Positions 26,029-26,100 of a stretch of 64,000 nt of DNA are shown one piece after another. Origin of the DNA: a virus (lineage: Duplodnaviria > Heunggongvirae > Uroviricota > Caudoviricetes); IMG/VR virus record IMGVR_UViG_3300047476_000806, one strand, 5' to 3'. The notes under the pieces are model-generated. The model was not told the origin of the DNA. It was given only the letters and a program-made list of their open reading frames with translations, and did not search any database. Positions within the stretch are counted from its first letter, which is position 1, and every line of letters starts with the position of its first letter. The translations under genes were made by a program, and so were the position numbers.

Positions 26029-26100
26029 TTACTTGTTCATTACGTACATAGTAACTTCGAAGCCGAAACGCATTTCAGTTGCAGATGGTTTTGTCCACAT
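26029..26100 (-). CDS. pqqA: PqqA-like 23-aa peptide (pyrroloquinoline quinone precursor peptide homolog)
   Basis: Translation is [23 protein letters not shown]. This is close to bacterial PqqA (for example [23 protein letters not shown]), with the cross-linked Glu and Tyr conserved at E-x3-Y. AAGGA RBS 7 nt upstream. A terminator lies immediately downstream. Confidence 0.7.
   Translation of the reverse strand: [23 protein letters not shown]

Follow-up and report, generated by a model that had tools for sequence, protein, structure and literature searches.

A stand-alone pqqA cassette in a T4-like phage and its possible role in supplying a cofactor precursor to methylotrophic hosts

Bacteria build pyrroloquinoline quinone (PQQ) from a ribosomally made peptide, PqqA, and the locus described here raises the question of whether a phage carries a true gene for this peptide and, if so, what that gene would do in a genome encoding none of the enzymes that act on it. 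The locus lies in a 64,000-nucleotide stretch of DNA from a virus of the Caudoviricetes (IMG/VR record IMGVR_UViG_3300047476_000806), referred to at its full length as the window. Positions 26029–26100 of its minus strand hold an open reading frame (ORF) of 23 codons, running from ATG to TAA, whose translation gives a 23-residue peptide. A first-pass annotation, made from the nucleotide sequence alone, had likened this peptide to PqqA, a precursor with a conserved E-x3-Y pair, and had suggested that it either feeds PQQ synthesis in the host or acts as a decoy for the host enzymes.

The identification as PqqA is correct. In a profile search using hidden Markov models, the peptide passed both PqqA models at about twice their cut-offs, scoring 40 bits against TIGR02107 (NCBIfam; cut-off 20, E = 2.3e-10), with residues 2–22 aligned onto model positions 1–21 of 21, and 43.3 bits against PF08042 (Pfam; cut-off 21.1, E = 3.2e-11), with 19 of 19 model positions covered. 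The window contains roughly 1,000 mini-ORFs of at least 20 residues (70 per 4.5 kb sampled), and the E-values stay highly significant after correction for this number, so the match is not due to chance. The E-x3-Y pair is Glu15-Val-Thr-Met-Tyr19, Glu15 and Tyr19 being the PQQ-forming residues. Like other PqqA proteins, which are short peptides of about 20–40 residues with an N-terminal W-x-K/T-P leader, it is 23 residues long and has Trp2 and Pro5, from which recognition of the leader by PqqD is predicted. The window carries a genuine pqqA gene.

A further feature of PqqA genes, a position directly upstream of pqqBCDE in one operon, is not seen in the window. Searching with Acinetobacter PqqB, PqqC, PqqD and the first 318 residues of PqqE (tblastn) returned no match in the 64-kb window. 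The statement in the first-pass annotation that pqqB–E are missing holds well beyond the window: pqqB follows none of the 84 viral pqqA copies for which at least 1.5 kb of downstream sequence is available, PqqB–E homologues are absent from 120 listed viral loci (tblastn), and neither pqqB nor pqqC occurs in any true phage among 50,697 records. The PqqB–E queries came from a bacterial contig filed as 'Acinetobacter phage MD-2021a'; the records under this name (L007, CAKLQF020000010.1, and CAKLQH020000055.1) were considered as a phage with a pqq operon and rejected, both being bacterial contigs that carry ppk and pqqABCDE. In pqqA genes of the type found in the bacterial family Methylophilaceae, a place next to pqqBCDE is not a defining feature, since 85 of the 99 listed host copies with enough downstream sequence are orphans, the other 14 preceding pqqB.

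The window gene is equipped with its own expression signals. A Shine-Dalgarno sequence, AAGGA, lies at 26108–26112 (minus strand), 7 nt (TATTACC) before the ATG, as the first-pass annotation had said of its ribosome-binding site (RBS), and in viral and host copies alike the commonest upstream 8-mers include RBS k-mers of the AAGGAGA type at about −13. Farther upstream on the same strand are a −10-like element, TATATAAT, at 26163–26170 (TATAAT at 26168–26163, with no good −35 hexamer), and, at 26192–26208, the sequence TTAATGATTTTCTCTAT, an upstream cis-element common to host and other phage pqqA genes, hereafter the pqqA box. The box and the −10 element are spaced by 37–39 nt from start to start. 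Immediately upstream of the window pqqA, a generic scan for sigma-70 promoters gave no consensus match, and the promoter was recognised solely by comparison across copies. Beyond the coding sequence, an intrinsic terminator occupies 25978–26010 (minus strand). Its stem-loop, GAAGCCAGTC-CAAAA-GACTGGCTTT (26010–25986), has a 10-bp stem and a 5-nt loop, is located 18 nt past the stop codon and is followed by the T-run TTTGTTGT (terminator scan). A hairpin and T-run had previously been reported at 25983–26007; the terminator exists, and only those coordinates, about 3 nt off, needed correction. The hairpin RNA folds with −15.2 kcal/mol (z = −3.7), and 1 of 200 shuffled sequences folds equally well. 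The window pqqA is an autonomous cassette of pqqA box, −10 element, RBS, 23-codon ORF and intrinsic terminator, and it points in the same direction as its neighbour genes.

The same gene recurs in other phages. Searched by blastn, the 1 kb around the gene matched through the mini-gene alone, at 81–89% identity in six phage records. A tblastn search with the peptide, which the first-pass annotation had recommended for related phage genomes, found the gene in Venkman (100% identical), in a Manatee Spring podovirus (MW202481.1), in P19250A (freshwater LD28 clade), in MEP301, in MEP401 and MEP402 (Zobellviridae) and in four Melnitz genomes (Kyanoviridae), where it lies at 76134–76208 of the plus strand in MZ577097.1. 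Venkman, P19250A and MEP301 are siphovirus-like. All Methylophilales (OM43/LD28) phage records that were returned carry pqqA, and every GenBank phage copy is an intact ORF with an RBS. That such an ORF escapes normal gene calling, as had been anticipated from its length, is plain from these records: most leave the pqqA site unannotated, and in Melnitz and MW202481.1 the annotation that covers it is an antisense 'hypothetical protein', probably a spurious one. With either a Methylophilaceae-type or an Acinetobacter-type PqqA as query, pqqA was not found in phages of other PQQ producers.

Scanning IMG/VR for the 10-residue core of the peptide identified at least 120 viral contigs; here, as in the host scan described below, sequences were gathered with degenerate DNA patterns that fix residues 10–19. 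Among the contigs listed, 11 encode the exact peptide of the window, the loci fall into 16 neighbourhood groups by shared flanking ORFs, and the closest relative of the window (L068) has pqqA immediately after gp32. The window itself represents a lytic T4-like myovirus, with a host most probably among the Methylophilaceae (the obligate methylotrophs OM43, LD28 or Methylotenera), and its pqqA lies about 3.8 kb from gp32, whereas in Melnitz the gene precedes the gp5 hub gene and a tRNA-Leu gene. The position of pqqA differs among related myoviruses, indicating that the cassette moves.

A parallel scan of bacterial genomes, one for each of 185,579 species and with a slightly longer pattern, found at least 120 loci. 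Those listed belong nearly all to the Methylophilaceae (Methylotenera, Methylophilus, Methylopumilus, Methylobacillus and OM43), and most of the others bear higher-rank names only. Since the exact core of the peptide is found essentially in Methylophilaceae genomes alone, the host is inferred to produce PQQ, in agreement with the first-pass annotation, which had read the gene as a hint of such a host. The host PqqA consensus begins MWT[TK], and the phage peptides are nearly identical to it. Methylophilaceae genomes have 3–12 pqqA copies and a single pqqBCDE(FG) set (Beck et al. 2014, PMC4109929), and this multiplication of pqqA alone suggests that precursor supply, not enzyme level, is what the hosts scale up. 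A prophage origin of the orphan host copies, or mis-binning of phage contigs, was dismissed for 119 of 120 loci; with 1 of 120 host loci phage-like, the host and viral sets are distinct. That single locus (L198, CAUYTX010000455.1, 'Gammaproteobacteria bacterium strain CCP3-SC1AL1') has pqqA among phage-like genes, and 14 of its ORFs resemble those of pqqA-bearing viral contigs, with, for example, 89% identity to one of them (L046). This locus probably belongs to a prophage, or to a phage contig within the assembly of a culture, and could lead to an isolate-phage pair.

Comparison of the upstream regions defines the pqqA box more closely. Its core, T[ACT]ATG[AGC]TTTT[AC], is present in 58 of 112 unique viral upstream regions, TTMATGRTTTTMYKKAK being the extended form, and in 56 of 117 host upstream regions (either strand), a fraction like the viral one. 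Within 1.0 Mb of viral loci, 57 of 94 box matches share the strand of pqqA and fall in the 160-nt stretch upstream of it, a zone that makes up less than 1% of the viral DNA searched, and within the host loci 64 of 82 matches lie no more than 220 nt from a pqqA start. The distance from box start to a TATAAT-like hexamer is exactly 37 nt in 25 of 43 viral cases, forming a sharp peak. A palindromic or tandem host box (e.g., TCATGATTTTCATGA; ATGA-W3-TCAT) occurs in 29 of 117 host but 1 of 112 viral upstream regions; this form is often farther upstream in hosts, whereas the phage box is usually a single site. The box adjoins a weak −35 region, which suggests an activator site, and it is probably either such a site or a promoter-recognition element. 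A role as a general phage promoter element (e.g., MotA-box-like) was rejected, since the whole window contains 4 matches versus 2.4 expected and a −10 element follows the pqqA match alone. Judged by a strict rule, 114 of 121 host copies have a terminator-like hairpin downstream, compared with 53 of 113 viral ones. Of 101 viral loci, 47 have pqqA antisense to both neighbouring genes and 18 have it at a convergent junction, so that in many loci it must rely on its own signals.

This architecture invites the explanation that the locus is a moron-type cassette kept for another benefit, such as lysogen fitness, titration of the factor that binds the box, or a strong promoter or terminator that shapes phage transcription, with the peptide being secondary. 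The promoter-gene-terminator layout, its frequent antisense orientation, the varying sites in related phages and a conserved box that is both specific and positionally rigid all speak for it. Yet the box is kept in about half of the viral copies and the ORF in all of them, synonymous changes far outnumber non-synonymous ones, which places the peptide sequence under selection, and the gene is also found in lytic T4-like phages (the window and Melnitz), to which lysogen fitness is irrelevant. We regard this explanation as unlikely.

The pattern of nucleotide change speaks to selection more directly. Of the 72 nucleotides, 8 differ between the window gene and its Venkman counterpart, yet no amino acid does. 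Across 110 unique viral coding sequences, variation at third codon positions is about five times that at first or second positions. At the 12 codons outside the search pattern, pS is 0.50 and pN 0.13, giving a pN/pS of 0.26; the pN/pS of 0.13 over all codons is biased by the search pattern. Synonymous changes thus far exceed non-synonymous ones, and selection acts on the peptide itself; within viral lineages it is of the purifying kind that is looked for in an auxiliary metabolic gene (AMG), here in a set that was collected by similarity. A short, highly conserved element with a stable 3' hairpin could conceivably be a small RNA or an integration or recombination site rather than a coding gene, the more so as DNA matches between unrelated phages cover this segment only. 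The concentration of variation at third codon positions, with the frame kept, runs counter to this idea, as do hairpin sequences that differ between phages and the fact that T4-like lytic phages do not integrate; an Rfam scan of 25500–26600 at E <= 1 gave no match and hence no support for a known RNA element. We consider such an element extremely improbable.

Equally hard to sustain is the proposal that the gene is a functionless passenger, recently captured from a host, or an assembly artefact caused by contaminating host DNA. Its appeal lies in a peptide almost identical to host PqqA and in a nucleotide identity between the window gene and some host copies of up to 68 of 72. Nevertheless, 1 of the 110 unique viral coding sequences is nucleotide-identical to a sampled host coding sequence and that of the window matches none, while the host loci, as noted above, are phage-like in a single case. 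No copy examined has a damaged ORF, RBS or stop codon. The gene has phage genes on both flanks and is present in complete genomes of independently isolated phages; it is a host-derived metabolic gene inside a bona fide viral genome, as expected of an AMG.

At the level of the peptide, Trp2, Pro5, Arg11, Gly13, Glu15, Val16, Thr17 and Tyr19 are invariant in 121 viral copies, those within residues 10–19 being fixed by the pattern. Glu15 and Tyr19, both so fixed, are invariant in 127 host copies as well, and Trp2 and Pro5 are invariant outside the pattern. Most of the variation, in viral and host copies alike, falls at positions 4 and 6. Two residues are enriched in viral copies, Ser6 (39 of 121 versus 3 of 127 host copies) and Cys21 (14 of 121 versus 2 of 127). 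Tyr7 is seen in nine viral copies and Ile20 in nine, IANK-, IANR- and IATK-type C-termini among them; these variants may derive from phages of other methylotroph groups.

These data bear on the decoy idea, in which the phage peptide would tie up host PqqD or PqqE, or yield a dead-end product, and so stop PQQ synthesis. Carriage of the peptide gene alone, never with the enzymes, and the small virus-specific biases toward Ser6 and Cys21 would suit an inhibitor. However, the phage peptides are near-identical to the host consensus and fully retain Glu15, Tyr19 and the leader residues, and with these retained the phage peptide should be a normal substrate. In addition, the hosts themselves multiply pqqA copies, and a lytic phage would suffer if the sole enzyme system that yields energy to its host were blocked. 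A decoy is, in our judgement, very unlikely, and of the two functions first suggested only substrate supply by an AMG fits the data.

We therefore favour the reading that phage pqqA would supply the consumed precursor, so that host PqqBCDE keeps making PQQ for methanol dehydrogenase, and give it a probability of roughly 0.7. In the known pathway, according to references given in PMC7678222, PqqD binds PqqA, PqqE, an enzyme of the radical S-adenosylmethionine (SAM) type, cross-links its Glu and Tyr, and peptidases, PqqB and PqqC finish PQQ. We infer that the phage gene would be expressed during infection, its product processed by these host enzymes and the phage thereby benefited. Transcribed from its own host-type promoter, it would give a short mRNA of about 180 nt from which the 23-residue peptide is translated; host PqqD would bind this peptide and PqqE would cross-link Glu15 to Tyr19; host peptidases, PqqB and PqqC would then complete PQQ for export to the periplasm and loading into the methanol dehydrogenases XoxF and MxaF. 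Because one PqqA is destroyed per PQQ whereas the enzymes are reusable, PqqA is the one component of the pathway that depends on continuing transcription. A phage carrying pqqA only could in this way keep or raise PQQ, and hence methanol-driven energy, after shut-down of host gene expression. In OM43, xoxF is transcribed more highly than any other gene (PMC5120137).

Several points weigh against this substrate-supply reading. PQQ is a reusable cofactor, and a need for new synthesis within a short infection is not obvious; the argument needs either loss of periplasmic PQQ or new apo-dehydrogenase. Strain H5P1, the OM43 host of Melnitz and Venkman, was grown with 1 nM PQQ added according to the Melnitz paper, which mentions PQQ as a medium supplement only, and with PQQ in the medium laboratory infections may not depend on pqqA. 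The search pattern fixed residues 10–19, so conservation of the core is partly built in, and the counts are lower bounds. Finally, the window contains a borderline SAM lyase ORF (22560–23087, minus strand, 175 aa; PF23780, 27.6 bits versus a cut-off of 28), which, if real and active, would deplete the SAM needed by PqqE. If real, it would also place an anti-restriction SAMase inside the same phage that feeds a radical-SAM pathway.

The remaining gene content of the window is that of a T4-like phage. Its large ORFs include T4-type baseplate wedge and hub proteins, a tail tube cap and gp32; RNase H is encoded as well, and no PQQ-dependent or methanol dehydrogenase was found among the large ORFs scanned. 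Immediately downstream of pqqA are a cell-wall hydrolase and an SNase-like nuclease, and DsbA, gp33 (the late-transcription coactivator) and gp59 are also encoded nearby. Upstream, 1.3 kb away, lies an ORF for an Acb3-like inhibitor of the cyclic oligonucleotide-based antiphage signalling system (CBASS) (27373–28089, minus strand, 238 aa; PF25187, 91.8 bits). The gp6-like baseplate protein is closest to that of the four Melnitz phages (OM43 clade) at 44% identity, followed by pelagimyophages and cyanomyophages, and the G+C content of the window is about 33–37%. Megablast of positions 20000–32000 against the phage collection gave no match, so the phage has no close sequenced relative there. The exact gene string from the hydrolase to gp59 recurs in the Logan assembly SRR35180666 (L248, 40.4 kb), one of three or four such contigs, indicating that the same phage has been sampled elsewhere.

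Other regions of the window are noted here in their own right. At 56906–63092 (minus strand), 24 tRNA genes form a block with small ORFs in between and together serve nearly all amino acids; this is a large number, and the related Melnitz showed single tRNA genes only in the region examined. A plus-strand island at 49952–56382 has a higher G+C content (0.34–0.36) and positive GC skew, and encodes CsgG, a curlin-repeat protein, a FecR-domain protein, a 664-aa ORF without family match and a 672-aa CHASE2 plus adenylate/guanylate cyclase protein with a full-length match to PHROG 35576; curli genes are present in Melnitz as well. Between the baseplate module and gp32, a 679-aa ORF (19168–21207, plus strand) has no Pfam or PHROG match.

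The locus matters beyond this phage. Methylotrophs of the OM43 and LD28 clades are plentiful in lakes and coastal seas and turn over methanol via PQQ-dependent XoxF; should their phages routinely add to the supply of the PQQ precursor, viral infection would directly keep methanol oxidation going in infected cells, with a bearing on carbon flux estimates. An AMG of this kind, its function being the one proposed above, is missed by standard gene calling. The near confinement of the pqqA core to the Methylophilaceae makes it a practical host marker for uncultured viral contigs, and the shared promoter box offers a handle on the pqqA regulator in this family. Cultured phage-host pairs, Melnitz or Venkman on H5P1, provide a testable model for control of a multi-enzyme pathway by its consumable substrate alone.

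A viral pqqA as such is not new. Coutinho et al. (2020, Microbiome 8:163, PMC7678222) reported PqqA in the Lake Baikal viral population VP_266, which has a predicted Methylophilaceae host, and proposed it as an AMG supporting methanol oxidation. VP_266 also encodes a methanol dehydrogenase, which was not found among the large ORFs scanned in the window, and that study concerned one viral population, whereas the gene is seen here in all returned cultured OM43/LD28 phages as well as in at least 120 contigs of IMG/VR. The Baikal study was the sole report of a viral pqqA in the literature searched, which did not cover a 2026 paper on reservoir viruses containing the terms 'pqqA' and 'auxiliary metabolic gene'; within that literature, the presence of pqqA in every returned Methylophilales phage record, its abundance in IMG/VR and the box shared with hosts appear to be undescribed.

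Compared with the orphan PqqA of the Methylophilaceae, the window peptide has the same 23-residue length and the same 15-residue core, and differs from a common host variant by one residue, Ser6 for Ala6. The host genes share with it the RBS, the downstream hairpin, the upstream box and, for the most part, the lack of an adjacent pqqB; unlike them, the window pqqA is part of the genome of a lytic phage, with phage genes on either side. The cassette also resembles a moron in its compact form, in having a promoter and a terminator of its own, and in its insertion between phage genes, often antisense orientation and variable positions. The classical moron is known from temperate phages and works in lysogens; the pqqA cassette differs in occurring also in lytic T4-like phages and in carrying a box specific to one host gene family.

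A parallel exists in cyanophages. They carry psbA, which encodes the D1 protein, is host-derived and is under purifying selection, and by analogy the pqqA phages would likewise carry only the rapidly consumed part of the host's energy machinery, leaving the rest to the host. The products differ, that of pqqA being a 23-residue ribosomal cofactor precursor, the substrate of a ribosomally synthesized and post-translationally modified peptide (RiPP) pathway, which host enzymes destroy stoichiometrically. It is a tentative proposal, somewhat short of even odds, that the pqqA cassette with its host regulatory site is a near-universal signature of Methylophilaceae phages, captured repeatedly by unrelated sipho-, podo- and myoviruses because the supply of PqqA is where energy metabolism driven by methanol has its infection-sensitive bottleneck. 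On this proposal, pqqA would be the methylotroph counterpart of cyanophage psbA and the first case of a virus steering cofactor biosynthesis through a RiPP precursor alone, plugged into the regulatory circuit of its host.

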